Shown: positions 7,086 to 59,600 of the stretch, in pieces | Layout: the number at the start of each line of letters is the position of its first letter | Numbering within the stretch: the stretch's first letter is position 1 | From: Octopus sinensis | Taxonomy: Eukaryota | Direction: 5' to 3' | Assembly (NCBI RefSeq): GCF_006345805.1 | Contig: NW_021832001.1 | Span: forward strand, 1-63,139 | DNA: 63,139 bases | Translations under genes and position numbers: made by a program | Notes under the pieces: model-generated | Database searches by the model: none | What the model saw: only the letters and a program-made list of their open reading frames with translations | Told to the model about the DNA's origin: nothing

Positions 7086-7483
7086 AGGGAGAGAGAGATT
7101 GTTATGAAGTAGCCATCATTGATAATAAAATACACAGACTGCTGGATATTTCAAGAGAAGAAGAAAACCAAACGTTATTTTCGTCTTTTATTTCCTGTTA
7201 AAAAGCGATGCGCTTTTTTTACTGCCTTAATTTACGCTGATTTGTCTCTTTTCCAAACATTAAAAGTAAATGAACACTTAAATAACAATAAAGTGTAAGT
7301 AAATGACCATGAATAATGGGTAATTGCATAATTTTCATCAAAATAGAAATAGATTGCCAGATATTTTTATTTCAAAAGGCGTATGGGCAGTACATTCCGG
7401 AGAAACGGTTGAGTGACGGATAAAACGCATTACAACGTTCAACGTTCAGCTCTGTAATTCTATAATTTCAATTCCAATCATAC

Positions 7484-8317
7484 CTATTTCTTTATTACCC
7501 ACAAGGGGACAAACAAGGACAGACATAGGATTAAGTCGATTACATCAACCCCAGTGCGTAACTGGTACTTATTTTATCGACCCCAAAAGGATGAAAGGCA
7601 AAGTCGACCTCGGCGGAATTTGAACTCACAACGTAACGCAGACGAAATACCTATTTCTTTATTACCCACAAGGGGCTAAACACAGAGGGGGACAAACAGG
7701 ACAGACATAGGTATTAAGTCGATTACATCGACCCCAGTGCGTAACTGGTACTTAATTCATCGACCCCGAAGGATGAAAGGCAAAGTCGACCTCGGCGGAA
7801 TTGAACTCACAACGTAACGCAGACGAAATACCTATTTCTATTTCTTTATTACCCACAAGGGGCTAAACCACAGAGGGGGAAAAAAAGGGACAAACATAGG
7901 TATTAAGTCGATTACATGACCCCAGTGCGTAACTGGCACTTAATTTATCGACCCCGAAAGGATGAAAGGCAAAGTCGACCTCAGCGGAATTTGAACTCAC
8001 AACGTAACGCAGACGAAATACCGCTAAGCATTTCGCCCGGCGTGCTAACGTTTCTGCCAGCTCGCCGCCTTATTTCAATCATACCTATTTCTTTATTACC
8101 CACAAGGGGCTAAACATAGAGGGGACAAACAAGGACAGACATAGGTATTAAGTCGATTACATCGACCCCAGTGCGTAACTGGTACTTAATTTATCGACCC
8201 CGAAAGGATGAAAGGCAAAGTCGACCTCGGCGGAATTTGAACTCACAACGTAACGGCAGACGAAATACCGCTAAGCATTTCGCCCAGCGTGCTAACGTTT
8301 CTGCCAGCTCGCCGCCT
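7484..8317 (-). mobile_element. SINE family C trimer plus monomer
   Basis: Four ~180-230-bp units; the target sequence caatcatacct occurs three times (~7475, ~8076, ~8323). Confidence 0.9.
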
Positions 8318-8720
8318 TATTTCAATCATACCTGGTTCATCTTTGCCTTTGAGAGTCCAAGAGTAGGGGAAATGTACAATACCGCTAGTACCGCAATGGA
8401 ATAAATTAACTACACTTCGCTCATAAACTGTGTGGCCTTGGAAAATAAGTATAATAACGAAAGCTGTAGATTGATAGAACCGCAGAACGTCATGCAGGAT
8501 GTTTTGAGCGTGGTGATAGCTCTACATTTCGAATTCAAATCTGGTTGAAGTCGAGTACTTTGATTGTCATCCTTTCGTGGATAATCAAAATAAGTGTCAT
8601 CGAAGTCGGTATAATCATGAAATAGCGATATCAAAGGAGTCAAATGTATCTAGGTTATTCGTATCATTTTTGTGAATCAAAAGCTATCAAAAATGTTCAG
8701 ACTGACATATAGTTTTGTTT

Positions 8721-12656: not shown

Positions 12657-12688
<32 letters not shown>

Positions 12689-12960
12689 CTTTTCTACTAT
12701 AGATGCAAGGTCTGTGATTCTGTGGGGGAGCTGGTCGATTACCTCGACCGAAGTACTCGACTGGTACTTATTTTATCGACCGAACTTGAAACAGAACATA
12801 AAGACGGACGAAATAACCCTTAGCATTTTGTCTGACGTGCTAATGATTCTGCCAGCTTGTAGCTTTGATAATCATAGTGGTAATAATAATAATAATAATA
12901 TAATAATATGATCCTTTCTTCTGCTCTCACTCAATAATAATAATAATAATAATAATAATA

Positions 12961-13350
12961 GGCGTAGGAGTGGCTGTGTGGTAAGTAGCTTGCTTACCAA
13001 CCACATGGTTCCGGGTTCAGTCCCACTGCGTGGCACCTTAGGCAAGTGTCTTCTACTGTAGCCACGGGCCGACCAAAGCCTTGTGAGTGGATTTGGTAGA
13101 CGGAAACTGAAAGAAGCCCGTCGTATATATGTATATATATATATATGTATGTGTTTGTGTTTGTACCCCCAACATCGCTTGACAACCGATGCTGGTGTGT
13201 TTACATCCCCGTAACTTAGCGGTTCGGCAAAAGAGACCGATAGAATAAGTACTAGGCTTACAAAGAATAAGTCCTGGGGTCGATTTGCTCGACTAAAAGG
13301 TGGTGCTCCAGCATGGCCACAGTCAAATGACTGAAACAAGCAAAAGAGTA
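12961..13350 (+). mobile_element. SINE family A, full length, in an (AAT)n tract
   Basis: A box TGGCTGTGTGG, B box GGTTCAGTCCC, CORE-like ttaggcaagtgtctt, internal TA run, family tail. Confidence 0.92.
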
Positions 13351-13370
13351 ATAATAATAATAATAATAAT

Positions 13371-14150
13371 CTCTTCTACTAAAGGCACGAGGCCTGTAAT
13401 TTTGGAGGGAGGGAGCTAGTCGATTACATCGACCCCAGTGCTCGACTGGTACTTATTTTATTGACTCCGAAAGGATGAAAGGTAAAGTCGACCTCGGCGG
13501 AATTTGAACTCAGAAACGTAGCGGCAGACGAAATACCTATTTCTTTATTACCCACAAGGGGCTAAACACAGAGGGGTCAAACAAGGACAGACATAGGTAT
13601 TAAGTCGATTACATCGACCCCAGTGCGTAACTGGTACTTAATTTATCGACCCCGAAAGGATGAAAGGCAAAGTCGACCTCGGCGGAATTTGAACTCAGAA
13701 CGCTAAGCATTTCGCCCGGCGTGCTAAAGATCCTTTTCTACTCTAGGTACAAGGCCCGAAATGTTTTGGGAGGGGGCCAGTCGATTAGATCGACTTCAGT
13801 ACACAACTGGTACTTAATTTATCGACCTCGAAAGGATGAAAAGCAAAGTCGACTTCTGCGGAATTTGAACTCATAGTGTAAAGAGCCGGAAGAAGCATTT
13901 TGTCCGACGCGCCAACGATTCTGCCAGCTCGCCGCCCCTACAATTCTGCTAACAATAATAATCCATTCTACTATAGGCAGAAGGCCTGAAATTTTAGGGA
14001 GGTTGTAAGTCGATTATATCGAGTCCGGTGCTATACTGGTATTTATTTCATCGACTCCGAAAGGATGAAAGGCAAAGTCGAGCCCGACGAAATTTAAACT
14101 CAGAGCGTAACGACAGATGAAATGCCGTTAAGTAGTTTGCCAGGCTTCTG
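13371..14150 (-). mobile_element. Cluster of about four SINE family C copies with long- and short-tail variants
   Basis: Repeated ctggtactta...gaaaggatgaaaggcaaagtcgac cores. Confidence 0.85.
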
Positions 14151-14170
14151 CTAATAATGTTAATAATAAT

Positions 14171-16245
14171 CCTTTCTTTTCTGGCCACAAAGGCCGAACA
14201 CAAAAATATTTAGGGACAATACATAACAAGGTACCAGTGGGGTTTAAAACGGAAAACGCGTAAACAATAAAAAACAAAGAGTTAACAAAAATTTAGCAAA
14301 ATTCCCCAATGGGGGTGGGGTGGAGTTTCACTCAAGGTCAACCAGGGCCAACCAGGGCACGCCAGGTAGGCACCCATCTTCCCCTCAACTGCTCCGGTTA
14401 CAGACGAACATTCAGAGCCATTTTCATAACATTCACCCACTTTTCAACAAAATTACTGGGGAGGCATTACTTCCTCTCTACCCTCACATTCCTTTTCAAG
14501 TGGAATTTGAAAAAGTAGATGAGGGGTCGGCCAATGAGGAAAATGTCTGTCGTCAGTCCTTTCAGCCTCGTCCACCACACTACCACCTTCGCTATAGCCA
14601 CCAGACAGAGGAAAACTGCCTTTCCCTCCCAGCCAAAAGAAGGCGGCGGGGAGATCCTCACAATGGACTCGGATGATAAACGGATTCGTCATACACGTGA
14701 CAGCAGCTGTTCAACAAAGCTCCACAAGTTAGTAATGCACGGACACTGGACAAATGCATTCAGGACGGTTCCATCACCCTGCACTCATCTTGGAAAGGTC
14801 CGTCTGACAGCACTACCGTGTCTGTAGAGCTTTTCCCGAACCAGCAAAGCTGCCAGTAGTACTGAGAGGCCAGAGATTTCTGGAAGTTATCCATAGGCCC
14901 TGGACCGAAAGTCCTCCGGAAAGGACCAGTTAGTTGATCTCTCCCGACACCCAGAATTTTCCCGAGTACGGCCTCGCTCTTTCCCTTCACTAATTCCCTA
15001 TAGAACTCCATAGTGGAACTTCCACCAACCTCGTTGCCCAACTAGCAGAAAGATATGAGCGCTTGCCGACACTCCAGGTGCTAAGTGCCTTTTATTGGTC
15101 TACGCTTGACCTAGGACTGTAGCTCCATCAATGAGACGAGCTGTGGAAAGCCTTGTTTGACGAACGATAACCACACCTGCCCACCTTTAAGGAAACGCTG
15201 GAGATGTCACAGCTTCAGCGCATGTTTGCGCATCATTAGCCACGGCATGCCCAGTCCTCCACTGTTGACGAGCAGAACACGTCCCTTCAATAGAAAGTGG
15301 AAGAGCAAGTGGAGAAAGGGACGACGGTCAGACTTCAGTAGATGACGGAAGCGATGTATGCATTCGCCACCTCCGCTCGATCCTTCAGGGACAGCTTCCT
15401 CTCTGCCCACTTCTGGGTGAGACTGGCTACTTTGCTTGTCACCTCCCCCCAGTTCTTGTTCACCTGGAGGTCTGGGCTAAACCAGATCCCGAGCAATTTA
15501 ACCGGTCCTTCCGCCCAGCTCCCTAAAAAGCTGTCGGGTAGCATAGACTTACCTCTCTAGGTGCCGAGCTGCAGGAGCACCGACTTTTGGTTTATCTTTG
15601 CTCCTATCACCACTTCGTACTCCCTTAGTGCAGTGTCGACCACCTCGATTTCCGTGATGTCCGGCACTATTACGGTGACGTCATCCGCATAAGCCGATTC
15701 AAAACTACCGCATTTTAGATCACGCAGGATGCCCCTCAAAACATCCATATTCCACAGCAATGGCTTAAGAGCCAGTACGTACAGAAGGGGCGAGAGTGGG
15801 CATCCTTGACGGACCGAACGAGCAATACTAAGCGATTCTGATAGGTGGCTGGTTACTTTGACCACCGAATGGATGTCGTTGTACATTGCTGTGATCTAGC
15901 CTCTGAAAACGGGACCGAAACCTGCTGCCGCGAGAACAGCCTCCAAGTATTGGTGGTCGTCCCTATCCAAATTGATCAGGGCCTCACCCATGCCAAGTTC
16001 TTTACACACCCTCTCAATTATGTAGCGCGTGAGATGGAGGTTGTTGTGGATAGTTCTATTTGGAATAGCGCGTTTTTGCGTATCACCAACCAACTTATCG
16101 ATGACAAGCGCCAACCTCTTGGCTAACCCTTTGACCGAAATCTTATAATCTTCGTTCATCAGAGTTATAGGCCTAAAATTATTAATTTTGTCCCCCTTGT
16201 TCGGGTGTTTCCCCAACAGCACCACCACTCTACGGCTCACAGCGC
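14171..16245 (-). mobile_element. 5'-truncated Tx1/L1-clade LINE, degenerate RT and C-terminus
   Basis: Minus-strand ORF pieces FRPITLMNEDYKI, SVRQGCPLSPLLY, AYADDVTV, LLGIWF, with stops and frameshifts. The 3' end abuts (ATT)n. Confidence 0.9.
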
Positions 16246-16329
16246 GTAGAAAAAATCTAAGGGGAGGTAATTGGTGATTGTTATTATTCAGGGCAGAGGA
16301 AGTAATAGTACAGTTTTTGGGTGGTTACA

Positions 16330-16763
16330 AATTTTGGGTGTGATAAATTTACATAAACTCATGAGTTAAATTAGTAAGATGTATAACTATGTATGTGGGG
16401 GGAAATTCTTTCTTATGGTGAGAGGTATAAAGGTCATATCTAAAGCTACGGATTTAAATCTGTCCAGAGTTACCACTCTCCAGTATTTGCCGTTGATAAC
16501 AGCTAAAGAGCCAGAAAGCCGCGTATGAGAATCAATTAGGGGGTGATAATGGCGGTCAGATATGGCGTCTTTATACCTCTTCAATAAGTGAAAATTTTTC
16601 TCTCCGTTTTTTGTTTCTCTCTCGCCATTTTTTCCTCTCATCCCTTTCTGTCGAATCGTAGGTTCGAAATATCAAAGTCGACTCTATTTTTCCTAAGCGT
16701 CAGATTAATACACCTGCTTGTTCCCTCACTGTCTTTGTCTTTTGTTTTCTGTACATCTGAACC
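16330..16763. mobile_element. Penelope-associated fragment: possible inverted ORF remnant plus degenerate hammerhead tail (+ strand, 16644-16677)
   Basis: cttt-CTGTCGA...GAAATATC-aaag followed by the ttcctaagcg box shared with the 21.5-kb and 22.9-kb elements. Minus-strand peptide YHP...INGKYWRVV..D loosely resembles the Penelope RT C-terminal region. Confidence 0.5.
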
Positions 16764-16937: not shown

Positions 16938-19900
16938 GGTTCTACCTGAAAGGTGCCTGCCGGCATGGAGAGGAAGGTGCAGGCTGCCGCTTTGCACATC
17001 CGGGACCCTGCCACAGAAACCAACCACCGAAAGGAATGGGATGGACCACGCATCACCGGCCCCAAAACGGAGGTACGCAGATGTGGTGCGTACCACAAAC
17101 CACCAACATGTTGTTGAAAGGGCAGCTGCTGAGCAGGAATCTTTTTGTGCATGGCACAAAAGATTGTACAGCAGCTAACCTGCTCCATCAGGCTCAGGTC
17201 GCAGATGGAACTGCCCACGTTTCACAAGACCGCCACAGCAGATGGACCCAGGGTGGACACCACCGGCAACAGCATACACCTCACCTCGATGCTCCTACTG
17301 AACATCAGAGGACTACTAACACACAGTAACAGGACAAAAGTCCCGTTCCTGAGAGACTTTGTCGCATGCAATCAAGCCTTATGCATAGCACTCACAGAAA
17401 CGCATCTGAAACCGACATAGCAGATGCGGAATTACACCTACCACAGTATGTTGTACTACGGACCGACAGGAAAAAAGAAGTCATGGAGGAGTTGCTATGT
17501 ACATCCGTGGGGACCTCACACCCCAGGTCCTTTTGTCATACTCAAACTCGGTGTGTGACACACTAATTGTCACATAAGGCAACTTGATGTAGTTGTGTGT
17601 GGCTACATATCGCCCTCCAGATGCCCCAAGTCATATGGGCAAGTTTGAGGACTGCCTTTTAAAAATAAAGTTCTAACCACATTAGAACAACACATAAGTG
17701 TACTTCTCATGGGAGACTTCAAGCTACCGAATGTCAGATGGCCCGAGGGCCTTTCTCTCCCAGGAATGACAAGATGTGAACGAGGACAGGCGAGGTCCCT
17801 CCTGAACCTCACCAACACCCTGTACATGGAGCAAGTAATACTCCAACCAACCAGAGCGGGTACACACTGGATCTCTGCTTCACAAATAATATGGATCTCA
17901 TCCATAAGTGAAAGTGACAAGACACACCGACACTACTCTCGGATCACAACATGGTAGAGCTGACCATGTACGGCCAAAAGAGAGCACGGACATGCAGCCT
18001 ACAAGAACCCTCAGAATCTTTCCAGCTTGAACTTCAATAAGGCAAACTGGAAACAAATGAGAAAGAGATCCTCAAACAAAACTGGCCTGAATGTCTCTCC
18101 TCGCCGGACATCGACATTACTTACTTCAACAATTCATGTCTGTAATGCAAGCCATATGCTACAAATGTGTCCCAGAGAGAAAGGCCACTGTACACACAAG
18201 AACAATCCCCAGAGAGAGAAAAATTTTAATGAGACGGGGCGCACAAAAATCTCAAATCGCCTAAACAACAAATTGAAAGCAGTGAAAAGTCCCGCCTGAA
18301 AATAAAACTGTTGGAAATTGAAAATTGTCTGCAACTCTCCCATGAAAGGAAAGAGCAGACAAAGAAGCCTGGGCTATAGACAAATATAAAACTAACCCCA
18401 GAGCTTTCTACAGGTATGCCAAAGAAACAGCTACGGTGCACTGTAGGATAGGGCCACTCCTTGAAAAGGATGGCACACTCACAGGAAAACCAATGAGGGT
18501 AAGTGAAATACTGAATGAACAATTCAAGAGTGTTTTCACTCCACCCCTTGGGCATTTCCAAATCAGCAATCCAACTGACATTTTACCACTGCAGATATAG
18601 AATCAGAGGCGGCGACGTTAAATTACATCGATATAAAGGAAGACGATGTAATAAAGGCTATAGATGAAATGAAAATAGACTCAGCTATTGGCCCCGATGG
18701 ATTCCCGGCAATCCTCCTAAAAGTATGTAAGAGAGTCTTAGCAAGACCACTGCAGTTCCTCTTTCAGAGCTTCCTTGCAGCTGGCAAACTTCCAAGAAAA
18801 CTGAAGGAAGGTAAAATATGCCCTATTCATAAAGGAGGTAGCAGAGCGAGGCCAAGAACTACAGACCTATCTCTCTGACCTCACACATCAGCAGGTCATG
18901 GAACGAATAGTCAGAAGGAAACTAATCACCTTCCTTGAAGAAAATGACTTGCTGCCTGAACGCCCAACATGGTTTCCGACCAGGAAGAAGCTGCTTAACT
19001 CAGCTCCTGCAGCACACTATGACTGGGTGCTGAAACAACTGCTCAACCACTCAAATGTGGAAGTCATATATCTCGACTTCGCAAGGCCTTCGATAAAGTC
19101 GATCATGGAATGACGTGATTTTGTCACAACTGCGTGAGCTTGGCATAGTTGAAAACTAGGAGAATGGCTTCACGACTTTCTGAAGAATAGAAGTCAGGTG
19201 GTAGTAGCCAATGGGCCACTTCCATTAACACGCAAATAGTGAGCGGTGTTTCCACAGGGCACTGTTTTGGGACCACTACTGTTCATAATGGCCCTCTCAG
19301 ACATGCCCTCAGCCACGCGGAGAGCCACGATCACAAGTTATGCCGATGATACAAAGTTTCACAGGCAATACAGAACCCTGAAGACACTAGCACCTGCAAT
19401 GAAGCTGGACGAAATATACAAGTGGGGCTGAAAAGAATAGCATGCAGTTCAATGCTGAAAAGTTCAAGCTTTATACTATCAGCATGCAAAACTGAATGCA
19501 ATAACCCAAGGAATACACTGGACCGGAGGGATTGCAATCCCAGAGGCACAATCAGTGCGTGACCTGGGTATTCACATGAGTGATGACGCGACCTTCATGT
19601 ACTGTTGCTAAACTGACAATGAAATGCAGACGGCTGGCTGGATGGATTCTTAGAACCTTTAGAACAAGAGAACAAGAAACCATGATGGTCCTCTGGAGAC
19701 ACTTGTCCTAGTCACTTTGACTATTGCTCTCAGCTATGGTCACCATCCAGTGTCAAGTTGATCACAGAACTTGAGGCGATCCAACGAAGCTACACGAAAG
19801 AAATAGCCTCTATGCAGAATGTAAGCTACTGGGAAAGACTCAAGAGATTAAAATTATATTCCCTGGAGCGTAGGCGGGAAAAGATATGCCATAATATACA

Positions 19901-20338
19901 TCTGGAAGATCCTGGAGGGAAGTGTCCTGAACTTTGCATCGAGAGTTACGCAAACGCCAGAACTGGGCGCCACTGCGTGGTGCCTAGGACTCCAAACTTG
20001 CCATCAAGATGTAGGGACAAGATTCTGTGATAGCCTGGGCTTCCGAGGCCCACAGCTCTTCAATATCCTCCCGATGAACCTGAGAGACCTGCATGGGGTG
20101 GATACAGATGTCTTTAAAATGGAGCTGGATCTCTCTCCTGTCAGGTGTCCAGATGAACCAACTTCACGCAGGAGGGGCAGATGAGGGCAGCTGCATCGAA
20201 CTCTCTCTGCACCAAATAAATAGCAGTTGCTAGAAAGCCTCCATGAAGTGAAACCAAGTAGCAACACCAAATGGCGGTGCCCCAGCATGGCCACAGCTCA
20301 TAAGCTGAAACTGGAATCAATCAATCAATCAATCAATC
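16937..20338 (+). mobile_element. CR1/L2-group LINE: ORF1 remnant, APE endonuclease and RT, frameshifted; (AATC)n tail
   Basis: LLLNIRGL..ALTETHL, MGDFKLP, GPDGFP, YLDFA, PQGTVLGPLLF, SYADDTK, SYWERLKRLKLYSLERRR; flanked by (TA)n on both sides. Confidence 0.92.
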
Positions 20339-21725: not shown

Positions 21726-21997
21726 GTATTTATATATATATGTATATACATACACACATATATACACCATCATACGACCACCCTACGTCTTTAATTTATT
21801 CCAGAGGACATGGCTTATGTCGAAATAACCATTATTTAAATGTATATACATGTAATGATTAAAACCTTGGCTACCCTGGGTTGTTTTTATGTTAGCCTAC
21901 GAATTCGGTAAGTTGTTAAGCAAGCCTAGTTTTATTTTATATTAGAAAGAAATAATTTCAAATACTGTTCTGTTGCCTACCTGGTGGCTGACGTCGG

Positions 21998-22183
21998 TGC
22001 TGGCAGAAACGTTAGCACGCCGGGCGAAATGCGTAGCCGTATTTCGTCTGTCGTTACGCTGTGTTCAAATTCCGCCGAGGTCGACTTTGCTTTTCATCCT
22101 TTCGGGATGGAATCGACTTAAAACCTATGTCTGTCCTTGTTTGTCCCATCTATGTTTAGCCCCTTGTGGGTAATAAAGAAATA
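21998..22183 (+). mobile_element. SINE family C copy with internal deletion
   Basis: Head gctggcagaaacgttagcacg, B box ttcaaattcc, tail ttgtgggtaataaagaaatag. Confidence 0.85.
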
Positions 22184-23693: not shown

Positions 23694-24955
23694 TCAGGCT
23701 GAGTAAAAAGTAAGCAACGTTTTGAACCAAGAAGAATTCGTACCGGAGTTCTGAATTATTTTTTTAAACATGTTTTTTGCAATTGTCTGATAATACAGAC
23801 ATAGACTTGCTTAAATGCATCGATAAATTAACATTGACATTTTTTTCACCCTTGTTACAATCATCTGAAATGGAACTGTCAAAGCACAATATTCGAGCAA
23901 TTTTGCTAATCAACTTCAAAAAAAGGACGTAAAGCAGCTGAAACTGCTCGCGATATCAACGAAACGTTTGATGAGGAAATGTCCAGTGAGTGGTCAGCTC
24001 GAAAATGGTTCAAACGATTTCTTAGTGGAGACCTGAGCCTTGAAGATCGTGATCGTAGTGGACGTCGACCTGTCATCGATGACGGTCAATTAAAGACCGT
24101 CATTGAGAAAGATCCACGTAAAACCACTCGAGAACTAGCAAAAGAATTTCAAGTTAGTCAGGAAACTGCCTGCAACCATTTGCTTGCAATCGGAAAATCA
24201 AAAGAGCTGGACAAATGGGTACCACACGTTTTGAGTGAAAATCAGAAAATGCGCAGATATGAAATTTGCTCGTCGCGTCTTATCCGTAACCAGACCGATC
24301 CATTTCTCGACAGTATTGTAACATGCAATGAAAAGTGGATTCTGTACAATAATAAAAAAAAAAAGTCTTCGAAGTGGTTGGACCAAAATGAAACACCGGA
24401 AACCTTCTCTAAACCCGAGCTCTTCAAAAAGAAGGATATAGTGACTGTTTGGTGTTGTACTGCTGGACTCATCCACTATAACTTCTTAAAACCCGGAATA
24501 ACCATTACAGCAAAAACATATTGTTGTGAAATTGCCAATATGAACGAAAAACTGCTACTCCTCCGTTCCGGACCGGTCAACAGAAGAGGGCCAAACATTT
24601 TCCATGACAATGCTCGATCACACGTTTCACTAATGACGTTCCAGAAGTTAAGGGAACTTGGCTACGAAGTCCTTCCCCACCCAGCTTATTCCCCAGACTA
24701 TCACTTTTTCTAGCAACTTGATGGTTTCCTGCTAGAGGAGGAGTTCTAAAATCAAACCTATGCTGAAAGTCCGTTCAAAGAGTTCATCAGCTCCAGAACT
24801 CCAAATTTTTATGTTACCAGAATAAACAAACTTGTAACACGTTGGAAAAAATGCGTTGATTGTAACGGTACTTACTTTGATGAATGAAATTTCCGCATTG
24901 CTGAAAAACTTGTGAATGATTTCATGTTTCAAACGTTGCTTACTGTATACTCGAC

Positions 24956-30870: not shown

Positions 30871-32021
30871 CGGTAGAGAAAGATCAGAACTGGTTGAAAG
30901 TAAGCATGATAGGAGAGGCGGGGTTGGGGGAAAAGCACGGAGAAATATCAATTAAAAAAGGGGAAGAAATCAAGAAGAAAAATGAAAAGAAAGCTGAAAT
31001 TTTTCTTAAAACATGTAAAATAATTCTGAATTTTTTGAAGTTATCTCCCTTTTTCTTTCTGAGCCGCTTACAGTGTTACCGCTAGGTTTTTGTCTTCTTT
31101 CTCCGACTAAGAAATAATCTTGACTTAATTGAAAATATTTTGCGTCGGTCGTTCAATGCATGATTTTTTTTTAACATGTCTCAATTCGTACGATTCGTCC
31201 TCCCGAGGATTTTTCTCAAACATTTATTTCAATTTTTTAATGTATGCAAATTACTAGAGCTAAAACTACTTTTCGTGTCCGAAAGGTTGAAAGACAAAGT
31301 TGACCTTGGTGGAATTCGAACTCAAGGTAAAAAGGGCCGGAAAAATTATCTGCAAAGCATTTTTCGAACACTCGAGTGATTCTGCTAGCTCACTGCCGAT
31401 TGCCATTTTTCCCACCTTCACCGAACTTTCAATAAAGTCAACCAGGACAATACCTCTCTCTTCGCCGTCAAATTCCTTTTAAAGTGAAACTTGATAAAGC
31501 CGATGAGGCGGGTCTCCGAAAAGGAAAGACTCTGTCGCCACACTGCTTCTTTCGCTATAGGCCACCAAACAGAAGGAAATTGTTTTCTCTGACTGCTTAA
31601 GGCAAGAGGGTGAGGTTGTCATCATCATGAACTCAGCCGACAGCCAGATCCAGCTGTTCAGCAAATTTTAATAAATCAGTAATTCTCGGACTCGGAACGC
31701 AAGCATGTAGAACGATTTCGACGCTCTACTCACACCTCGGACAAACCTGTCGGAGGTTGTGAATCAATCTGTTCGTGATCGCGCACGTTCTTGCTTCCTT
31801 GACCAGACTACCGACAACAAGGACAACACTTTTCGGTAACATCGTGGTCAAAATCTTAAAATCTGTGTTTGGCAGGGTTATGAACAGAATATTGCCTATC
31901 ATGTTCCCTTTCTCAGCAGTGTTACAACTAGCCGGCTCACAAAGCTAGCAATTGTCTCGTTTTACTAGTTGTGACAGACGTTTGCCAAGAGGCTACCATA
32001 CAAATCTGGTTCAAACTCGTA

Positions 32022-32254
32022 GGCGCTGAGCTGGCAGACATGTTAGCGCACGCCGGGCGAAATGCGTAGCCGTATTTCGTCTGCCGTTACGCTCTGAGTT
32101 CAAATTCCGCCGAGGTCGACTTTGCCTTTCATCCTTTCGGGGTCGATTAAATAAGTACCAGTAACGCACTGGGGTCGATGTAATCGACTTAATACCTATG
32201 TCTGTCCTTGTTTGTCCCCTCTGTGTTTAACCCCTTGTGGGTAGTAAAAAAATA
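32022..32254 (+). mobile_element. SINE family C monomer, full length
   Basis: Exact 25-bp TSD catacaaatctggttcaaactcgta (31997-32021 and 32255-32279). Confidence 0.95.
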
Positions 32255-36168: not shown

Positions 36169-36263
36169 TTATAACGCCCCTCTTAGACATAATATTTCAA
36201 AATTTATTTTCTTTTATTAAACAGAGGAGAGTTGTTGGTGGGCAGGAGATATAGGTAGATCAA

Positions 36264-37334
36264 AGCGGCGAGCTGGCAGAAACGTTAGCACGCCGGGCGA
36301 AATGCGTAGCCGTATTTTGTCTGCCGCTACGTTCTGGGTTCAAATTCCGTCGAGGTCGACTTTGCTTTTCATCCTTTCGGGGTCGATTAAATAAGTACCA
36401 GCTACGCACTGGGGTCGATATAATCGACTTAATCCGTTTGTCTGTCCTTGTTTGTCCTCTCTGTGTTTAGCCCCTTGTGGGTAGTAAAGAAATAGGTATT
36501 TTGTCTGCCGCTACGTTCTGGGTTCAAATTCAGTCGAGGTCGACTTTGCCTTTCATCCTTTCGGGGTCGATTAAATAAGTACCAGTTACGCACTGGGGTC
36601 GATATAATCGACTTAATCCGTTTGTCTGTCCTTGTTTGTTCTCTCTGTGTTTAGCCCTTTGTGGGTAGTAAAGAAATAGGTATTTTGTCTGCCGCTACGT
36701 TCTGGGTTCAAATTCGGTCGAGGTCGACTTTGCCTTTCATCCTTTCGGGGTCGATAAATTAAGTACCAGTTACGCACTGGGGTCGATATAATCGACTTAA
36801 TCCGTTTGTCTGTCCTTGTTGGTCCTCTCTGTGTTTAGCCCCTTGTCTGCCGCTACGTTCTGGGTTCAAATTCGGTCGAGGTCGACTTTGCCTTTCATCC
36901 TTTCGGGGTCGATAAATTAAGTACCAGTTACGCACTGGGGTCGATATAATCGACTTAATCCGTTTGTCTGTCCTTGTTGTCCTCTCTGTGTTTAGCCCCT
37001 TGTCTGCCGCTACGTTCTGGTTCAAATTCGGTCGAGGTCGACTTTGCCTTTCATCCTTTCGGGGTCGATAAATTAAGTACCAGTTACGCACTGGGGTCGA
37101 TATAATCGACTTAATCCGTTTGTCTGTCCTTGTTGGTCCTCTCTGTGTTTAGCCCCTTGTCTGCCGCTACGTTCTGGGTTCAAATTCCGTCGAGGTCGAC
37201 TTTGCCTTTCATCCTTTCGGGGTCGATAAATTAAGTACCAGTTGCGCACTGGGGTCGATGTAATCGACTTAATCCCTTTGGCTATTCTTGTTTGTCCCCT
37301 CTACGTTTAGCCCCTTGTGGGCAATAAAGAAATA
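36264..37334 (+). mobile_element. SINE family C hexamer within one TSD
   Basis: One full head plus five headless units; 17-bp TSD aggagatataggtagat (36244-36260 and 37335-37351). Confidence 0.92.
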
Positions 37335-37627
37335 AGGAGATATAGGTAGATGGAACGTCCATACTGCTTCGTTTGTTGTTTAACCCCTAGTGAAACAAGA
37401 TCAATATGACCTATGGTCAATGATGTTCGAACTGTAGCAGTCCTATCTTTTATCCACAAAGTATATTTAGGTCTGCAATGAGTGGTTTCTTTCTAAAGAT
37501 TTTAGAGAAATTTGGCCGTTATTTCTTGTAGCCTGACGAAGATGTAGAAGCTCCTTGCATAATTGTTATTTTTTGTTAAGCTCCAGGTCACTCCTCATCA
37601 TGCAGACACACGATCAAAAGTATTCTT

Positions 37628-38761
37628 ATTTCATATTTCTTTATTGCCCAGACAAACAAGGACAGACAAAGGGATTAAGTCGATTACATCGACCCCAGTG
37701 CGTAACTGGTACTTAATTTATCGACCCCGAATGGATGAAAGACAAAGTCGACCTCGGCGGAATTTGAACTCAGAACAAAAAGACAGACGAAATACCTATT
37801 TCTTTACTACCCACAAGGGACTAAACACAGAGAAGACAAACAAGGACAGATAAATGGATTAAGTCGATTACATCGACCCCAGTGGGTAACTGGTACTTAA
37901 TTTATCGACCCCTAAAGGATGAAGGCAAAGTCGACCTCGGCGGAATTTGAACTCAGAACGGAAAGATAGACGAAATACCTATTTCTTTACTACTCACAGG
38001 GGGCTAAACACAGAGAGGACAAACAAGGGCAGATAAACGTATTAAGTCAATTACATCGACTCCAGTGCGTAACTGGTACTTAATTTATCGTCCCCGAAAG
38101 GATGAAGGCAAAGTCGACCTCGGCGGAATTTGAACTTGGAACGTAACGGCAGACAAAATACGTATTTCTTTACTACCCACAAGGGGCTAAACACAGAGAA
38201 GACAAACAAGGACAGATAAATGGATTAAGCCAATTACATCAACCCCAGTGCGTAACTGGTACTTAATTTATCGACCCCGAACGGATGAAAGGCAAAGTCG
38301 ACCACGGCGGAATTTGAACTCAGAACAAAAAGACAGACGAAATACCTATTTCTTTACTACTCACAAGGGGCTAAACACAGAGAAGACAAACAAGGACAGA
38401 TAAATGGATTAAGTCGATTACATCGACCCCAGTGCGTAACTGGTACTTAATTTATCGACCCCGAAAGGATGAAGGCAAAGTCGACCTCGGCGGAATTTGA
38501 ACTCAGAACGGAAAGACAGACGAAATACCTATTTCTTTACTACCCACAAGGGACTAAACACAGAGAAGACAAACAAGGACAGATAAACGGATTAAGTCGA
38601 TTACATCGACTCCAGTGCGTAACTGGTACTTAATTTATCGACCCCGAAAGGATGAAGGCAAAGTCGACCTCGGCGGAATTTGAACTCGGAAGGTAACGGC
38701 AGGCGAAATACGGCTACGCATTTCGCCCGGCGTGCTAACGTTTCTGCCAGCTCGCCGCCTT
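37628..38761 (-). mobile_element. SINE family C hexamer within one TSD
   Basis: Six ~183-bp units; 15-bp TSD atcaaaagtattctt (37613-37627 and 38762-38776). Confidence 0.92.
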
Positions 38762-38853
38762 ATCAAAAGTATTCTTGCTATGACCATCTTGTCTATTTTT
38801 CTCAAACGTAAAATGTCTAGTACTGCATTATCCAATGAGTCCTACATAAAAAA

Positions 38854-47489: not shown

Positions 47490-48800
47490 TCAAAGAAAGC
47501 AGACGTGCAGTGGGGGTGTCAAAGGAATGTCAGAGGAAGCAGACAAATAGTGGAGTTGCTAAAGGAAGTAGAAATGCAGTGGAGTTGTTAAAGGAAACGG
47601 AAATGCAGTGGAGTTGCCAAAAGTAGCAGAAATTCCAAAGGAAGCTGAAATGCAGTGGAATTGCTAAAAATACCAGAAACGCAGTGGAGTCGCTAAAATA
47701 CCAGAAACGCAGTGGAGTTGCTAAAGGAAACAGAAATGCAGTGGAATTACTTACAGAAGTAGAAATGCAGTGGAGTTGCTAAAGGATGTAGAAGTGCAGT
47801 GAAGTTGTCAAAGGAAGCAGAAATGCAGTGGGGTTGCTAGAGGAAGCAGAAATGCAGTGGAGTTGCCAAAGGAAACAGAAATGCGGTGGAATTGCTAAAG
47901 GAAGCAGAAATGCAGTGGGTTTGTTAAAGGAAGCAGAAATGCAGTGGGTTTGCTAAAGGAAGCAGAAATGCAGTGGAGTAGCCAAAGGAGACAAAAATGC
48001 GGTGGAATTGCTAAAGGAAGCAGAAATGCAGTGGAGTTGTTAAAGGAAGCAGAAATGCAGTAGGGTTGCTAAAGGAAGCAGAAATGCAGTGGAGTTGTTA
48101 AAGGAAGCAGAAATGCAGTAGGGTTGCTAAAGGAAGCAGAAATGCTGTGGAGTTGCCAAAGGAGACAGAAATGCGGTGGAATTGCTAAAGGAAGCAGAAA
48201 TGCAGTGGAGTTGCTAAAGGAAGCAGAAATGCTGTGGAGTTGTTAAAGGAAGCAGAAATGCAGTGGAGTTGTTAAAGGAAGCAGAAATTCAGTAGGGTTG
48301 CTAAAGGAAGCAGAAATGCAGTGGAGTTGTTAAAGGAAGCAGAAATGCAGTGGAGTTGTTAAAGGAAGCAGAAATTCAGTAGGGTTGCTAAAGGAAGCAG
48401 AAATGCAGTGGGGTTGCTAAAGGAAGCAGAAATGCTGTGGAGTTGTTAAAGGAAGCAGAAATGCAGTGGAGTTGTTAAAGGAAGCAGAAATGCAGTAGGG
48501 TTGCTAAAGGAAGCAGAAATGCTGTGGAGTTGCCAAAGGAGACAGAAATGCGGTGGAATTGCTAAAGGAAGCAGAAATGCAGTGGAGTGTTAAAGGAAGC
48601 AGAAATGCAGTGGAGTTGCCAAAGGAGACAGAAATGTGGTGGAATTGCTAAAGGAAGCAGAAATGCAGTGGGGTTGTTAAAGGAAGCAGAAATGCAGTGG
48701 AGTTGCCAAAGGAGACAGAAATGTGGTGGAATTGCTAAAGGAAGCAGAAATGCAGTGGGGTTGTTAAAGGAAGCAGAAATGCAGTGGAATTCCTGAAGGA
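47490..48800. repeat. 29-bp tandem satellite, ~45 copies, consensus AAAGGAAGCAGAAATGCAGTGGAGTTGCT
   Basis: Head-to-tail units with no spacers; 87-bp higher-order repeat at the right end. Confidence 0.95.
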
Positions 48801-49990
48801 AACAGTGTTAAAAAATGAAAAAGTAGAAATCAACAGAGAAAGGTAGCAGAGATGCATTTGAGACTTTAAAAGGAAACAGAGATAAAGTGGAATTATCAAA
48901 AGGAAGCTAAATGTCAGTGGAAAAGTTAAAGGTAGGGAAATTTCAGAAAGTTCTAAAATGAGAAAGATAAAAAAAAAAAACAGAATGGAATTAGTTTTTG
49001 GAAAGTGAAGAAAAAGGACGAAAAAGACGAATGAAATAAGATTTGAGAAGAGACGTGAAAAAAAGCCCCCAAAAATGTATGAGAATTCGAAAGGTAAAAA
49101 AGGAAGAAGTGCAGCAAAATGGATGAGGACTTATGAGGAAATGAAGTTGAAGAGGAAGAATAAAGTTGATGATGATGAGGATGATGATGATGATGATGAG
49201 AAGGAGGAGGAGGAGGAGGAAGGGGAGGTGGAGGAGGCGGAGTGTGGCGGCGGCGGCGGTGGTGGCGTGATAATGATGATGATGATGAGGAGGAGGAGGT
49301 GGTGGTGGAGGAATGTGGTGACGGCGGTGGTGGTGATGATGATGATAAGGAGGAAGACGACAGTTATGATGATGATGATGATGATGTTAGTGGTGATGGT
49401 CATGATGGTGATGGGCAGTGTTGGTAAATATGATGGTTAGAGTGTAGTGATGCAGAGTGTAGTAGTAGTGCAAGTGATGGTGGAGTTGGTGGTGATAATG
49501 ATGAAGATGATGACGATGACGACGACGACGATAATGATCGTGGGAGAAAGCCAGAAAAGAAGACGACTTTACCTTTCATCCTTTCTGAGTCGCTAAAATA
49601 GGTACCAGTTGAATACTGGAGTCAATGTAATCGACTCATCCCTTTCGCCGAAATTGCTGGCTTTGTGTCAAAATTTAAAACCATTATTATTTCCTCTTTA
49701 TCACAGGTTTTTTTGGAGCTCCTGGAGTCTTGCATGCGTATCGGGCTTACTACCTGCAGCCTACGGTACCATGTTATTAGTTCTTTTCAGCTATCTAATA
49801 CTTTCCTGATTATTCTGGCCGTGCCAAGGAGGCAAACCGTTTGTAACAGTTCTACTGGACACTCTATTCCTGTTTCCTTTATATTCCTCTTGATGCCTTC
49901 TGATACTGTTCCCAAGGACCCACCAAAAATGGCGCTTCATTTTCCATAGCCGGGCTATTTCGTACTTAAGAGGGTTGTATCTATCTTTCC

Positions 49991-50228
49991 TATTTCTTTA
50001 CTACCCACAAGGGGCTAAACACAGAGGGGGACAAACAAGGACAGACAAACGGATTAAGTCGATTACATCGACCTCCAGTGCATTACTGGTACTTAATTTA
50101 TCGACCCCGAAAGGGATGAAAGGCAAAGTCGACCTTGGCGGGATTTGAACTCAGAACATAGCGGCAGACGAAATACGGCTACGCATTTCACCCGGCGTGC
50201 TAACGTTTCTGCCAGCTCGCCGCCTTTT
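49991..50228 (-). mobile_element. SINE family C monomer inside the R4/Dong endonuclease region
   Basis: TSD tatctatctttcc (49978-49990 and 50229-50241). Confidence 0.93.
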
Positions 50229-50565: not shown

Positions 50566-51486
50566 TATAACGGGTGTTGATGAAATATCATGATTATTGG
50601 TGTTGCAGATGTGCAAGATGAAAGAACAGTGATCGAAGTGGTAAACAAATATTTAGTACCGTTACTTTGTATATAGCCAAACCACGACGAATTGATAATT
50701 CGTAAAGCATGCGAGGTAAAGAGAGATATCGTTGATTTTCCTTGTATAGTTTGTGTTTGTGTTCTCGTCATTGTGTAGTTGTAAATCACAGATAGAGATA
50801 GGATAATGTTGTAGAGAAGAGAAAGTGAGATAGTGAAAGTGAGGGTGGTGGGACGAAACAACTGCTTCGTTAGTGAGTTACCATAGTTGTCTCTCTGTGC
50901 CTTTTCCTTCAGAGATGGCGTTCGTTTAGCCGGTCAACCGACACGGTTCTCACTTACTGACTTTGGCTTACGGTGTTCTTGTATTTATAACTATGCAAAA
51001 CTAGCTAAAAAATGGTTATATTGCAGAGAACAAAAATATTCTCCACTGCATACAAGAGGTTAGAAGGGTCAAGTGGCAAAGACATAAATCGGCTTGGCAA
51101 AGCCATATGTTAAATTTAACGGATCTTTTCTTTTTGAAGGCCAGATTTTCCTAGTTAACTAAACAATTTGAAACTTCGTATACTGGTAGAATGTGTCAAA
51201 AGAAAACATTATTGTAAACAAAATGGAAAACAAAATTGTAATTCGTAACTTAAACATAGTTTAATTTTAAGAATTGTTTACAATAATGTTTTCTTTTGAC
51301 ACATTCTACCAGTATACGAAGTTTCAAATTGTTTAGTTAACTAGGAAAATCTGGCCTTCAAAATGAAAAGATCCAATTTAACTACTGTCAACCATTGTTT
51401 CTCTGTGAGAAAATGCTGTTGAAATATTATGGGAAATTTGCCTATTCAAGTTCGAATCTACTTTATGCCTAAATGAAGTCACTACA
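50566..51486. mobile_element. Probable solo LTR inserted in the R4/Dong zinc knuckle
   Basis: Clean ~920-bp interruption with a 4-bp direct repeat GTTT. Ends TATAA...CTACA, i.e. TG..CA with one change. Confidence 0.5.
51121..51374. mobile_element. Palindromic MITE with GG termini and 8-bp TSD (Merlin-like, tentative)
   Basis: 101-bp inverted arms with one mismatch; TSD aatttaac (51113-51120 and 51375-51382). Confidence 0.88.
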
Positions 51487-52303
51487 GTTTCATCCACTCT
51501 ATTGCAGATGCGACACAGCGGAGAGACACTTGCTTATTCCTAAGATTCCAGTTTGTGACCAAAGCTTGGTCTTGTGCTGCCAGTATAGTGCTCTCGATCT
51601 CATTTTTTAGGGTTCCTTTCATTAGCCAATCCATGGAATTGATTATGTAGTCCCTTCTTGCGTAATTCTTCTTCATGTCCTTTTTGCACTTCTTCCCCCT
51701 CCTTTTTTTCTCTGCTTTCAATACTCTCTCGTTCCTAATTGTCACTAGCAAGGTTTCCTTATTTTGGGTCAGGTATCTCATTAAACGTACTCAGTCTTCC
51801 CCACTTATCAATCTCCTTCCTCCATTTGCTCTCTTCATGTATAGGCGACCACGTGGATGATGGGCTCCATGCATTGTTAGGAGCTTTATTGACTTCTTGT
51901 CCATCTCCTTTAGCTCCTCCTCTGTCCACTTCGGGATTCCAGCGCCATACGGAACTACTGCGATTGCGTGCGAGTTTATTGCCGAAATTATGTTTCTGAC
52001 ATTCAGCTTTGAAGCCGATATTTTTCTCACTCGCGGCTGGTACTCTCTTTTTGTCTTTTCCTTTCATATAGCGGTGTTTGATTCCATCTGTCTCAAGTAT
52101 TCTCTGGTATTTATAGCTGGATTGAGGTTGGATTGCTTTCATCATTTCACCACTAGGCAAACACATGCCCTCTGTTCTGGCAAGCCTTTCCTCGTCTCAT
52201 CACCACCGAGGCACATTCTGAGACCCCCAAACTCCATCTTAATATCATTTGAAAAAAATCCGCACAGACTGGACCAGGCTGTCCAGTTCTGCTTCAGTTT
52301 TTG

Positions 52304-55506: not shown

Positions 55507-56497
55507 GAATTAATGTACGTGTAAACCAACTCATAACCACTTTCTTCAGAGCTCTAGCATTGTCCATGGAAACGAGCGATAGTGTACTATAAGGACATGC
55601 AGTTCAATTAATGAATTCAAAACATTATCGATAATGATCCGGAAAAATGATAATCATCACCAAAGAACTTCAAGTTTCGGAGTGGACTATCAGAACTGCG
55701 GTGCACAAGGGCATTCGGTAGAAATCGTGCGAACTGAAGAGAGGTCAGTTAATGTATGAAAAGACACAGGAAAGCCGTTTGATCAGTATCAAGCAGTTAC
55801 TTAACAAGTCTAATATCCTTTAAGAACATGACATGCTTTGATTCTTCTCCGATGTGGAAAACTTCGACCAAGACCAAAGGTCATATAGGAGAAATGACTG
55901 ATGGTAATGTTTAGTTTATCCTGATGTCCCTATGTAGGGAATTAATAATAATGATACACCCCTCCCACGTGACGAATGGAAAGTAAAGAGAAGTACATGG
56001 AGTACGGGAGAACGTAGGAGGAGGTCTGAGACAGTCGTGACTTTACTGGTTTTACTAAGTATACTGTATACTGAAGTGGGTGTTATAATAATCCGACATT
56101 TTAAGGATTACAACAGTAAGTCTCAAGCAATTGTAATGGTTGTACTAATACAGGATCATAGACACATGCACAAGGCAAGATATCTTAAGGCTTCTAACGT
56201 GACTCTCTACTAGTCGTTCATATAATAATCCTGAATCATGTTATGTTATGACAAAGTCGTGTATTTACTGGTAGTGACGACACATTATAAGCGAAAAAAC
56301 ATGGAAATATGTCGGTAAGCAGAAGTTAATTAAATCTAAAAAGGTAGCACATGGTGGTACGGGAAAAAGATTATATTTTTCGGTGAATTCGTATGTAGTG
56401 CAATATTTCAAGAACAAACGAAAAAGACAAAGATGTATGTATCAAAAGAATCACTTGGCACAGAGTGGATTGAAATATAGATTGAAATGTGTGGAAA

Positions 56498-57806
56498 TAT
56501 ACCCGAGGAAGAACATATGGCATTGTGGAGGTGCGTTTCACGACGGAGGATGAAGCGATTAAGAATTCAACAGAAGCAATACGAACAGAGGAATGGGTGT
56601 TTTTGCCGTCCTACTGTGGCAAACGTGTTGCCAGAGTAAGAGTTGGCAGAGTGCCACCAGAGATAAAAGAAACATGGCTGATGGCAGCCATCATGTACAA
56701 TATGGAGGAGGAGACCAAGATTCTCAAGGCGACAAGAAACAAAAAGGGTGAACTATTAAGGATATGGCATAGAAATGGCCATTCAAGCTAGTATAGATGG
56801 CCTCAATAGAATCGCGGAAGAAATAGTTCTGCTTCAGGACGTAAGGCTGCGAGTGGTGTTGGAGGGTAGGCCGCCTATATGCTATGTATGTGGAGAAAAG
56901 GGCCACATAAAGAGAGAACAACAGATGGAACAGACGGAGAAGCAAGAGAGTGCAGACCAAGAGGTACAAGTCGAGGTAAAGGAGACAAGAATGGAAGAAG
57001 GATTTACGGTAGTAAAAAAAAGAAAGAGAAGTGATAGAGTAAGCTCTCCGCCAGAAGGGGCAGAAAAAGAAGAAAGAAAATGTAGAGAAAGAAATTATGA
57101 AGGAAGTCAGAAGGAAAGAATATAAAATGGTGGTTGACAAGGAGATCGAAAGAAACTTGAAAAGGAGCTCGAAGAGGAGTTGCAGAAGGAGGAGACAGCA
57201 GCAAAAACATTGATTGTACGAGTAGAGGAATAGGATTCAGGAGAACAATTATACGAGGGTGAAATAGAGAGATTATTTAGAGTGGAAAGAGAAAAGGTAC
57301 CAGCAGTGGAGCAGGAAAAGAGAAAGCAAGTAAGAAAACCCCCAAAATATCGATGGAATTTTGTGACATATGCGAAAAACAAGGAAACAGAACGGAAAAT
57401 AAAGAAATTTAAGTTTATCATAAGGGTGAAGCTTCCCACAGACGTGTATTCAGAAAATGTGAAGGCCATTGTGATCGACAGGGAGAAATACAACAGGTTG
57501 AGAGATATGTGTGGAGAGGGAATTGATCCGCCAGGAGTAGCGGTGGATTTCGATGAATTGCCACCGGTAGTGGAACTGAAAGATCTTGAACCTTTTATGA
57601 AATACTAAAAAAGGGAAAAAGTAAATAAAATTCTTTATCGGAAAAAAAGTTTAAAAAAAAGTAAAATGGGACTGCATGAGGAGTGGGGCCCATGCAGCCA
57701 TTTCATTTTCCTTATATAACATCTTCATTTTCATTCGTTTTATGTTTTTTGTCCCTACTGTAATGTTCGGTCTGTGTTATGGCCGTAGTGCCAAATAAAG
57801 AAAAGA
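56498..57806 (+). mobile_element. ORF1-only (HAL1-like) non-LTR element, copy 1, 5'-truncated and frameshifted
   Basis: Gag-like ORF with CYVCGEKGH knuckle and FTVVKKRKR, stop at ~57607, short UTR, Tx1-like 3' module, no ORF2. Confidence 0.7.
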
Positions 57807-57829
57807 GTACGTTGTAAGCGGTGAGACAT

Positions 57830-59600
57830 ATTTGCATCAATTGGAGTTAATTTTGTCGTGTTTTCTCGATTGCTGTTAGACGTAAGTCACTTTGTTAAAT
57901 ATTTGTTGAAGGTCTCCCCTCGTGGGTGTACCCAAGATTATTGATTGTAACTGTTGAAATTGCTGTTCTTGTTATTGTTGAATTGTTGTTCTTTTTCCCA
58001 TTGCGGGAAAGATGGAGAAAGTGCCAGTAGGAGGCCACAGTTATGCGGCAGCAACTGGTAGAGAAATGGAGGTTGAAGCTTTGGAGGTCCGCGAAGTGAA
58101 AGTTGAGCCGAAGGAGATGAAAGAATGTGAGAAATTATTGAAAAGGGAGGGAAACACGTTGAGACTAACGCCACCTGAGGAACTCACAAGTAGTATAACC
58201 AAGAGAATAGTGATTTTTAAAACACTGAAGGTGTCAAGTAGGAAGATCAAAATAGCAACAACTGAGGCTATTGAGAATTGTTTGAAGGATATTAAGAAAT
58301 TCACAACGTTCATCACACGTGGAAGGAGGTATGGAAAAGTGGAGGTGCGTTTCGCGATGGAGGACGAAGTGGTTAAGCACTCCACGGAAGCCATAAGAAC
58401 GGAAGAATGGGTACTTTTGCCGACGTACTATGGCAAGCGTGTTGCCAGGGTGAGAGTTGGCAAAGTACCCCCAGAGATAAAGGAAACATGGCTGATGGCG
58501 GCCATAATATTTGACATGAAGGGAGATGCCAAGATACTCAAGGCAACGAAAACCAAAAGGTTGAATTATTGGAGGTATGGCATAGAGATGGCCATACAAG
58601 CGAGTTTGGAAGACCTCAACAGAATTGCAGAAGAAATAGTTCTGCACGAGGATATAAGGCTAAGAGTGGTTGGTGGTGGTGGGTAGGCCTCTCATATGCT
58701 ACTTGTGTGGAGAAAAAGGGCCATATGAAGGCGACGTGCCCCCAGAAAGAAAATGAACAACAGATGGAACAGACTGTGGCGCAGGAGAGTGTAGACTAAG
58801 TGGTACACTTCGATGTAAAGGAGGCAAGAACAGAGGAGGAATTCACGGTGGTCAAAAAGAGAAAGAGAAGTGAAAGAGTAAGCTCTCTGCCAGAGAGGCA
58901 GAAACAGAAAAAAGAAGTGGTTAAGGAGATGGCGAAAGAGGTTGTGAAGGAAGTCAGAAGAGAGGAAGGGGAGAAGATGGTTGATAAGGAGATTGAAAAG
59001 GAGCTTGAAGAGGAGCTCGAGGAGGGGTTTCAGAAGGCGGAGACAGCAGCAAGGACACTGGTTATACCAGTGGAGGAAAATAATTTAGGCGAACAACTGT
59101 ATGAGGGTGAAATGGCGAAACTATTCAGAGTGGAGGAGGAAAAAGAAAAAGTACCAGGAGTGGCGCAAGAAAAGGAAAAACAAGCAAGGAAGGCGAAAAA
59201 ATACCGATGGAATTTGGTGACATACACTAAAAATAAAGAAACTGAACGGAAAATAATGAAATTTAAGTCCATTATAAGGGTTAAGTTGTCCACAGATGTG
59301 TATTCGGAGAACGTGAGGGCCATTGTGGTCGACAAGGAGAGGTACAACAGGCCGAAAAATATGTGTGGAAGAGGCATTGATACGGCATTGATAGTTGCGG
59401 TGGAATTTGATGAATTGCTACCAGTGGTTGAATTGAAAGATCTTGAACCTTTCATGAGATATTAAAAAAGGAAAAAAAGTAAAATCGCTTTATGTAAGAA
59501 AAAAAAAAGTAAAATTGATTTATTTTAAAAAAGAAAACGATGATAAAGGAAAAAAACAAAGGAATAATGAACGATTGGAAACGAGTGCGAGGAATATTCA
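57830..59600 (+). mobile_element. ORF1-only (HAL1-like) element, copy 2 (ORF 58012-59465, disrupted)
   Basis: N-terminal SYAAA; CYLCGEK/GHMKATC knuckle at 58697-58739 with a 1-nt frameshift; same C-terminus ELKDLEPFM(K/R)Y* as copy 1. Confidence 0.7.

Follow-up and report, generated by a model that had tools for sequence, protein, structure and literature searches.

Tandem SINE multimers in an octopus contig share a junction at the loop edge of the head hairpin

Tandem SINE multimers have been described in the blood clam Scapharca broughtonii, where arrays of 4–15 units follow two layouts, TSD1-(SINE)n-TSD1 and TSD1-(SINE-TSD1)n, according to the part of that study used here (PMC11481361). 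SINE multimers of squamates (sSat) and jerboas (Dip/B1) are built from units that correspond to a portion of a SINE; the terminal unit is longer, and units are homogenised within the locus. The excerpted text further reports alternating di/trimeric patterns in sSat and copy numbers that differ between orthologues (PMC10702118). In Octopus vulgaris, SINEs account for ~11.6% of the genome, as given in the section of the study consulted (PMC13282606). Titles and abstract openings yielded no report of such multimers in cephalopods; Repbase or Dfam may hold a dimer consensus.

All counts given here come from one 63-kb window with four multimer loci. The window is the whole stretch of DNA analysed, 63,139 nucleotides of an Octopus sinensis contig; it is microsatellite-rich eukaryotic DNA with mariner and LINE remnants. 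A 235-bp array query has 34 blastn matches in the window, older relatives of the SINE included. These older relatives end in (ATT)n, and seven loci carry the young tail (AAAGAAATA), namely, A (7.5 kb), B (13.5 kb), C (36.5 kb), D (38 kb) and monomers at 22, 32 and 50 kb (Table 1). Multimers account for four of the seven. The monomer measures ~232 bp and is present in several dispersed copies, consistent with a short interspersed repeat (<1 kb), and C, D and two of the monomers are flanked by TSDs of 13–25 bp, as SINEs are. The head is tRNA-like, with terminal GGCGG/CCGCC pairing and box-like motifs recognised both by eye and in folds. Those we take to be A-box-like and B-box-like in the head of C1 were read by eye against the consensus. 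ARAGORN predicted no tRNA gene, and Rfam gave no tRNA match to the SINE head. Octopus SINEs bear the names OK, OR1 and OR2. SINE motifs had no match in the searched part of the supplement of PMC4758252, and an exact 22-nt search of a contig collection without eukaryotic genomes returned two matches that show no SINE similarity and are due to chance. Older (ATT)n-tailed copies also form a cluster of uniform orientation at 12100-14150 on the minus strand, each copy adjoining the preceding tail, and locus B lies inside it.

Table 1. Coordinates of the SINE loci, their parts and the LINE in the window
Feature	Position	Strand	Details
Array A	7465..8332	-	target, headed A1, target, headed A2, headless A3, A4, target
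Array A target copies	8318-8332, 8071-8085, 7465-7484	-	
Locus B	13370..13728	-	truncated head, young unit, standard junction, older-type body
Decayed L1/Tx1-type LINE	14165..16330	-	stops and frameshifts; RVT_1 matches; 3' end resembles SINE tail
SINE monomer with internal deletion	21996..22183	+	TSD none seen
SINE monomer	32022..32254	+	25-bp TSD
Array C, left TSD	36244..36260	+	17 bp; identical to 37335-37351
C1, headed unit	36261..36494	+	234 bp; tRNA-like head, body, LINE-like tail ending AAAGAAATA
C1 A-box-like motif	36274-36284	+	by eye
C1 head hairpin	36295..36322	+	TAGC tetraloop 36307-36310; headless start = equivalent of 36311
C1 B-box-like motif	36337-36348	+	by eye
C2, headless	36495..36678	+	184 bp; join GAAATA-GGTATTT
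C3, headless	36679..36842	+	164 bp; tail gone at TTGT microhomology
C4 + C5	36843..37156	+	157 bp each; both ends cut at TTGT
C6, terminal chimera	37157..37334	+	178 bp; 5' half array-type; 3' half other subfamily, ending GGGCAATAAAGAAATA
Array C, right TSD	37335..37351	+	perfect 17-bp direct repeat
Array D TSD	37613-37627 and 38762-38776		15 bp, perfect
Array D, head + 6 units	37628..38761	-	four G junctions and one C junction (38163-38162)
SINE monomer	49991..50226	-	13-bp TSD

The original prediction described the multimers as one headed unit followed by headless units within a single TSD. This architecture holds for C and D and fails for the other two loci, since A has two heads and three targets and B is a hetero-dimer. 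The left and middle targets of A are identical in sequence, and the right copy is 6 bases longer. In locus B, the young unit is 5'-truncated in its head and internally deleted, lacking its first 20 body bases, and the downstream body carries the 3' end of the older (ATT)n family, uniting two families in one dimer. By-eye inspection revealed no TSD at B.

Array C comprises six units, headed C1 and five headless ones (C2–C6). It contains a second junction, CCCCTTGTCTGCC, which had been noted in this array only, and indeed all three copies in the window lie within C. This junction uses a 4-nt TTGT microhomology and requires C>T at column 60 of the alignment, a change present in all six C units and elsewhere in D4 only. 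It arose by a local deletion at the microhomology and was duplicated afterwards. C3, C4 and C5 have no substitutions among them and no private substitutions, whereas C1 and C2 carry three private ones apiece (post-hoc conditional p 0.004). They are best read as a recent DNA-level sub-array, although the single-G losses in C4 and C5 could also point to an assembly artefact. C6 is a different kind of unit: relative to C3, its 5' half differs at 1 of 79 positions and its 3' half at 10 of 78 (Fisher p 0.005), with p 0.058 for the same contrast against C1. The nearest relative of the 3' half of C6 is D6.

The units of array D pair as 1/4, 2/5 and 3/6, with 8 of 12 informative columns in agreement; in the test of this period-3 order, the result (48 of 720 orders, p 0.067) is the lowest attainable. 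D4 starts with C, like the D1 head, and its body is D1-like (columns 53, 66, 68, 78, 158 and 181). Bodies of D2, D3, D5 and D6 carry GTCTTT or ATCTTT, resembling the older copies, and D3 and D6 have a T5 run in common. A T4 run is found in C1–C3. GGGCAATAAAG is present in two of 17 tails, belonging to the last unit of each of these arrays (C and D), and these GGGCAAT-tailed units differ in their 5' halves. The two arrays are positioned tail to tail with 261 bp (37352-37612) between their TSDs, forming an inverted repeat with ~1-kb arms, and conversion within this inverted repeat could be an alternative source of the common GGGCAAT tail. The spacer opens with a weak tail-like sequence.

The main junction, GAAATA[GC]GTATTT, is present in ten copies in the window: two in A, one in B, two in C and five in D, that is, in all four arrays for which it had been reported and nowhere else. 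The first base after the tail is G in nine junctions and C in one (D3-D4). All ten joins between tail and hairpin arm begin at the identical base, the 3' edge of the TAGC loop, across four of the seven young-tail loci, and the main-type headless units all begin at the loop-closing base. The earlier placement of the junction at the 3' arm of the head hairpin is thereby refined to the very edge of the loop, in a hairpin that is longer than had been stated (11–13 bp; pairing probability 0.97–1.0 in all five headed copies folded). Microhomology at the main junction does not exceed 1 nt. The joins span two tail variants, GGTAAT and G(G/A)TAGT, and several types of downstream bodies, including the older (ATT)n family. 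A1, A2, B1 and three of seven older copies close the loop with a T.G pair; C1, D1 and all three monomers do so with G-C. For eight of ten junctions, the first base fits the type of head that goes with the body downstream, the exceptions being both junctions of array C. The loop-closing pair (e.g. 36306-36311 and 8274-8269) changes on both sides between subfamilies, which suggests that the head hairpin is under selection.

The hexamer that ends the tail is reverse-complementary to one located two bases into the unit (post-hoc chance ~0.003). In three of the four monomers checked, the reverse complement of the terminal GAAATA is found once per monomer, 1 nt past the G of GTATTT; it is missing in C1 because of a C>T change. 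The proposed mimicry of the 5' arm by the tail thus stands in sequence and fails as competition in intact RNA, where invasion of the hairpin by the tail has a probability of at most 0.0003 in five of five monomers (-3.6 versus -15.1 kcal/mol). Since the tail cannot compete with the 5' arm in intact RNA, its mimicry would matter only once the 5' half is gone. A switch to the 5' arm through GAAAT microhomology was rejected as well: it should leave a product that keeps the loop, of which the window contains no copy. When monomers were beheaded artificially, their ends folded together in two of five cases (P 0.95–0.98), and none of the seven real headless units reached P 0.5 for the end helix, so a special circularising fold of these units lacks support. 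Controls with the same ends and a shuffled middle (12 shuffles each) often equalled or surpassed the real headless units. A tRNA-intron (TSEN) site was set aside, since the loop edge does not appear to coincide with the intron boundary expected from tRNA geometry. As for ribozymes, an Rfam gathering search of the whole window gave no match, an E-value search of 36200-38800 gave one unrelated match (E 9.6), and a regular-expression search for the hammerhead core CTGAnGA found none on either strand of A, C and D.

To follow the history of units within arrays, we compared 16 units of A, C and D over 160 shared columns in a distance permutation test; B2 was excluded from the distance matrix and the tree because of its non-homologous 3' end. 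Differences are 0.056 for units of one array and 0.101 for units of different arrays (0 of 5000 permutations), as expected if units are more alike within arrays, the check attached to the original prediction. Tandem units derived from part of a SINE and homogenised within the locus are also one of the traits that define sSat. In the tree, every array falls on one side of a branch, and full support is reached on none. Under a one-template star model restricted to non-CpG columns, D has 8 shared substitution columns versus a mean of 1.6 (1 of 2000). The same model is rejected weakly for C (24 of 2000) and A (33 of 2000), the two non-CpG columns of A adjoining indels, and no rejection is obtained when CpG columns are included at a 10x rate (121, 282 and 336 of 1000). 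The units of an array are not same-age copies of one template. Runs of four or five T would hinder read-through by Pol III. Spread at the DNA level would therefore be favoured for units with such runs, T5 in D3 and D6 and T4 in C1–C3. Outer ends that escaped homogenisation would be the expected residue when a hetero-dimer undergoes unequal exchange. Ordinary DNA-level duplication is likely to account for much of the unit number. Later DNA-level expansion, one half of what had been named as evidence against the original prediction, is found for part of C and probably took place in D.

The window also contains a candidate partner of the SINE. The reverse transcriptase fragment of the decayed LINE is 63% identical to a protein of Argonauta hians, its best named relative, and relatives of the LINE carry PF03372, PF00078 and PF13966 (endonuclease, reverse transcriptase and zf-RVT), a domain set that fits L1/Tx1. 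When the last 40 nt of the SINE were compared with 2922 tiles of sequence, the 3' ends of the LINE (14161-14240, minus strand) and of an ORF1-only element (57761-57840) occupied ranks 1 and 2 for two of three queries; for the third query, they ranked joint 3 and 1, respectively. The match of the 72-nt tail to the LINE is modest, being equalled in 12 of 1000 shuffles and exceeded by other tiles. From sequence resemblance, the L1/Tx1-type LINE is likely to be the partner of this SINE. It ends in AAAAGAAA, right before the (ATT)n tract heading the cluster of older SINEs, and a short related fragment lies at 31402-31540. Two related head-to-tail elements at ~56400-57806 and ~57807-59500 (plus strand) have a zinc-knuckle ORF1-like frame, and no reverse transcriptase frame was seen in them; the former shares its 3' tail with the SINE and the LINE. 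These elements are likely ORF1-only non-autonomous partners. Other repeats include a 29-bp minisatellite (47637-48805, ~40 copies, 85% matches) and mariner transposase remnants at 23910-24713 and 60390-60836 (plus strand; PF01359, PF17906). Broken ORFs at 18805-20184 (plus) and 51482-52196 (minus) have no Pfam match at E 0.01; their motifs, CR1-like and R4/RTE-like, are presumably those of other LINE reverse transcriptase pieces.

An identical non-homologous join at four loci can hardly be the result of separate DNA slips, so either an origin at the RNA or reverse transcription level or a multimeric source copy is needed, as the original prediction held. Furthermore, the perfect TSDs of 17 and 15 bp indicate a single insertion for C and for D. 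With a probability of roughly 0.55, we favour the reading that the join arose at the RNA or reverse transcription step, that the dimer was moved by L1/Tx1-type machinery and that expansion at the DNA level came later. A SINE RNA or cDNA without its 5' half, lost at the loop, would have been joined to the 3' end of another SINE by an end-to-end jump of the reverse transcriptase or by RNA ligation, possibly aided by the 6-bp GAAATA/TATTTC complementarity. This join was likely made once or a few times. Source copies with one head and two bodies would then have brought the junction to new loci, each with a single TSD; such a multimer would be transcribed from one head, as the A-box-like motif stays in the first unit only. 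Finally, the 184-bp direct repeats would have recombined by unequal crossover, slipped and converted one another, so that the arrays were expanded and homogenised while their outer ends were spared. No dimeric source copy was seen directly in the window, and the C at D3-D4 and the hetero-dimer B hint at a recurring rather than an inherited join.

Such recurrence is the core of a possible but doubtful alternative, in which frequent cleavage of SINE RNA at the tetraloop frees a 5'-OH half that is ligated or jumped to another SINE 3' end, anew for each locus. It would account for the agreement between first bases and downstream head types: the C of D3-D4 precedes a D1-like body, and the G junctions of D precede GTCTTT bodies, as in the older copies. 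It also fits locus B, which unites two families. Homology-free precedents exist in the U6/L1 chimeras made by RtcB (PMC6789731) and the template jumping of R2 (PMC11194090), as far as the portions of these papers used here go. Nevertheless, both C junctions have G although the C1 head has C, which an inherited junction and a later change of the head would explain, and conversion or one point mutation could account for the C of D4. Moreover, a 12-bp stem would keep the cut halves together, and the end helix is not favoured in the real headless units, where controls often do as well or better. Self-targeted insertion seems unlikely. Here, the partner endonuclease would nick a SINE copy at TAGC-(G/C)GTATTT and the cDNA would anneal to the homologous overhang, the product being a seamless head with n bodies inside the TSD of the host copy; the mechanism would place LINE 3' ends against GTATTTCG of SINE heads. 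Tx1-clade elements often show target preferences. Locus B does look like a 5'-truncated young copy set at the loop edge of a copy from an older family that lies among other old copies, the last units of B, C and D have 3' halves from other subfamilies, and the target of A, which starts with GGTAT, was struck or duplicated twice. In addition, tandem SINEU-3 copies sandwich a TSD, as described in the part of PMC4494074 used here. However, a host would keep its own head, so that self-targeting predicts the head of the downstream partner, and the heads of C and D contradict this: they belong to the G-C type of the first unit, whereas the G junctions would call for a T.G head. Independent insertions would not have array-private variants in common either, and the five TSD targets resemble the loop edge weakly, with C at -1 in three of five (read off directly).

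The two remaining explanations fit worst. The original prediction had proposed re-priming or rolling of the reverse transcriptase on a circularised SINE RNA; as the source of unit number, several rounds on a headless circle within one insertion event now appear improbable. Higher similarity within arrays, the folding together of ends in two of five beheaded monomers and a unit length of 184 bp, within the ~150–300 bp range given for animal retrozymes in the section of PMC7761336 consulted, would agree with rolling. But the units are nested and of unequal age, all four loci open with a head or head fragment that a headless circle would lack, the second junction starts mid-array, and the searches described above found neither a ribozyme nor a real headless unit that favours the end helix. 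A strictly local origin, in which every locus duplicated its own monomer at the DNA level, is more improbable still. It draws on the DNA-level expansion evident in C and D and on the TTGT junction, a textbook microhomology product; yet the main junction, with its minimal microhomology, is identical at four loci with different flanks, and the GAAAT-homology product that slippage would favour is absent. Compared with these, an RNA-level or reverse transcription-level join carried by a dimer and expanded later remains the preferred reading.

The architecture of the arrays is known already; the new detail is a fixed junction at the loop edge that is common across subfamilies. What is unusual is the exactness of this tetraloop-edge join across subfamilies, together with the high share of multimers (four of seven loci in one window). 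If this share holds genome-wide, monomer-based repeat libraries miscount and misdate insertions, and the loci represent a large natural series on the seeding of satellites by SINEs. The fixed junction provides a single cheap marker, with which reads, the first base and flanking SNPs can separate dimeric inheritance, repeated joining and self-targeting. Repeated joining, if true, would mean that multimeric retroposons can form without a ribozyme; otherwise, the octopus arrays are a tidy cephalopod case of a known process. We are sceptical that SINE RNA is routinely cut at the head tetraloop, with the freed 5' end caught by the complementary GAAAUA tail of its own or a different SINE RNA and ligated or jumped. 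If it were, ribozyme-free concatemers or circles of SINE RNA would be a standing source of cross-subfamily multimeric insertions in octopods.

Comparison with known systems, based on the portions of the cited papers used here, places the octopus arrays closest to the clam multimers. The TSD1-(SINE)n-TSD1 layout, in which the first unit has a full head, the internal units are truncated and the last unit has a complete tail, is seen in C and D and not in A or B. C3–C5 are cut at both ends, as clam SINE units are, and array A matches the TSD1-(SINE-TSD1)n layout; the clam elements are tRNA-SINEs (PMC11481361), as the octopus ones with their tRNA-like heads probably are. Unlike in the clam, however, the main octopus units retain the whole tail and lack the head up to the tetraloop, and their junction recurs across loci and subfamilies. 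The clam arrays are attributed to unequal recombination between TSDs, and the sections considered describe no fixed hairpin-edge junction (PMC11481361). With sSat, the octopus arrays share tandem partial-SINE units, a longer terminal unit, homogenisation within the locus and an alternating pattern (PMC10702118), but they are short (2–6 units) and interspersed, whereas sSat is typified by long arrays in subtelomeric or heterochromatic regions. They also keep a TSD and the SINE termini at both ends, as only a minor variant of sSat does. As in dimeric or complex SINEs such as Alu, B1-dID and Twin (SINEBase, PMC3531059), two units would be amplified together from one promoter. Such families have a fixed multi-unit consensus, with position-specific units at many loci; in the octopus, by contrast, the second unit lacks half its head and the unit number varies. 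Tandem SINEU-3 copies mobilised by Tx1-Mar (PMC4494074) resemble A1/A2 in that a TSD is sandwiched between two copies, and their partner is of the Tx1 type, as that of the octopus SINE may be. SINEU elements, however, bear snRNA heads and are directed to a Mariner. Non-LTR retrozymes (PMC7761336), with tandem 150–300-bp units and TSDs, are the model behind the rolling idea; they bear a hammerhead ribozyme in every repeat and accumulate as circular RNA. The octopus SINE has a tRNA-like head and a LINE-like tail, and the searches described above found no hammerhead in it. Finally, U6/L1 ligation by RtcB (PMC6789731) and end-to-end jumping by R2 (PMC11194090) join two RNAs without homology and are precedents for the initial joining step only.
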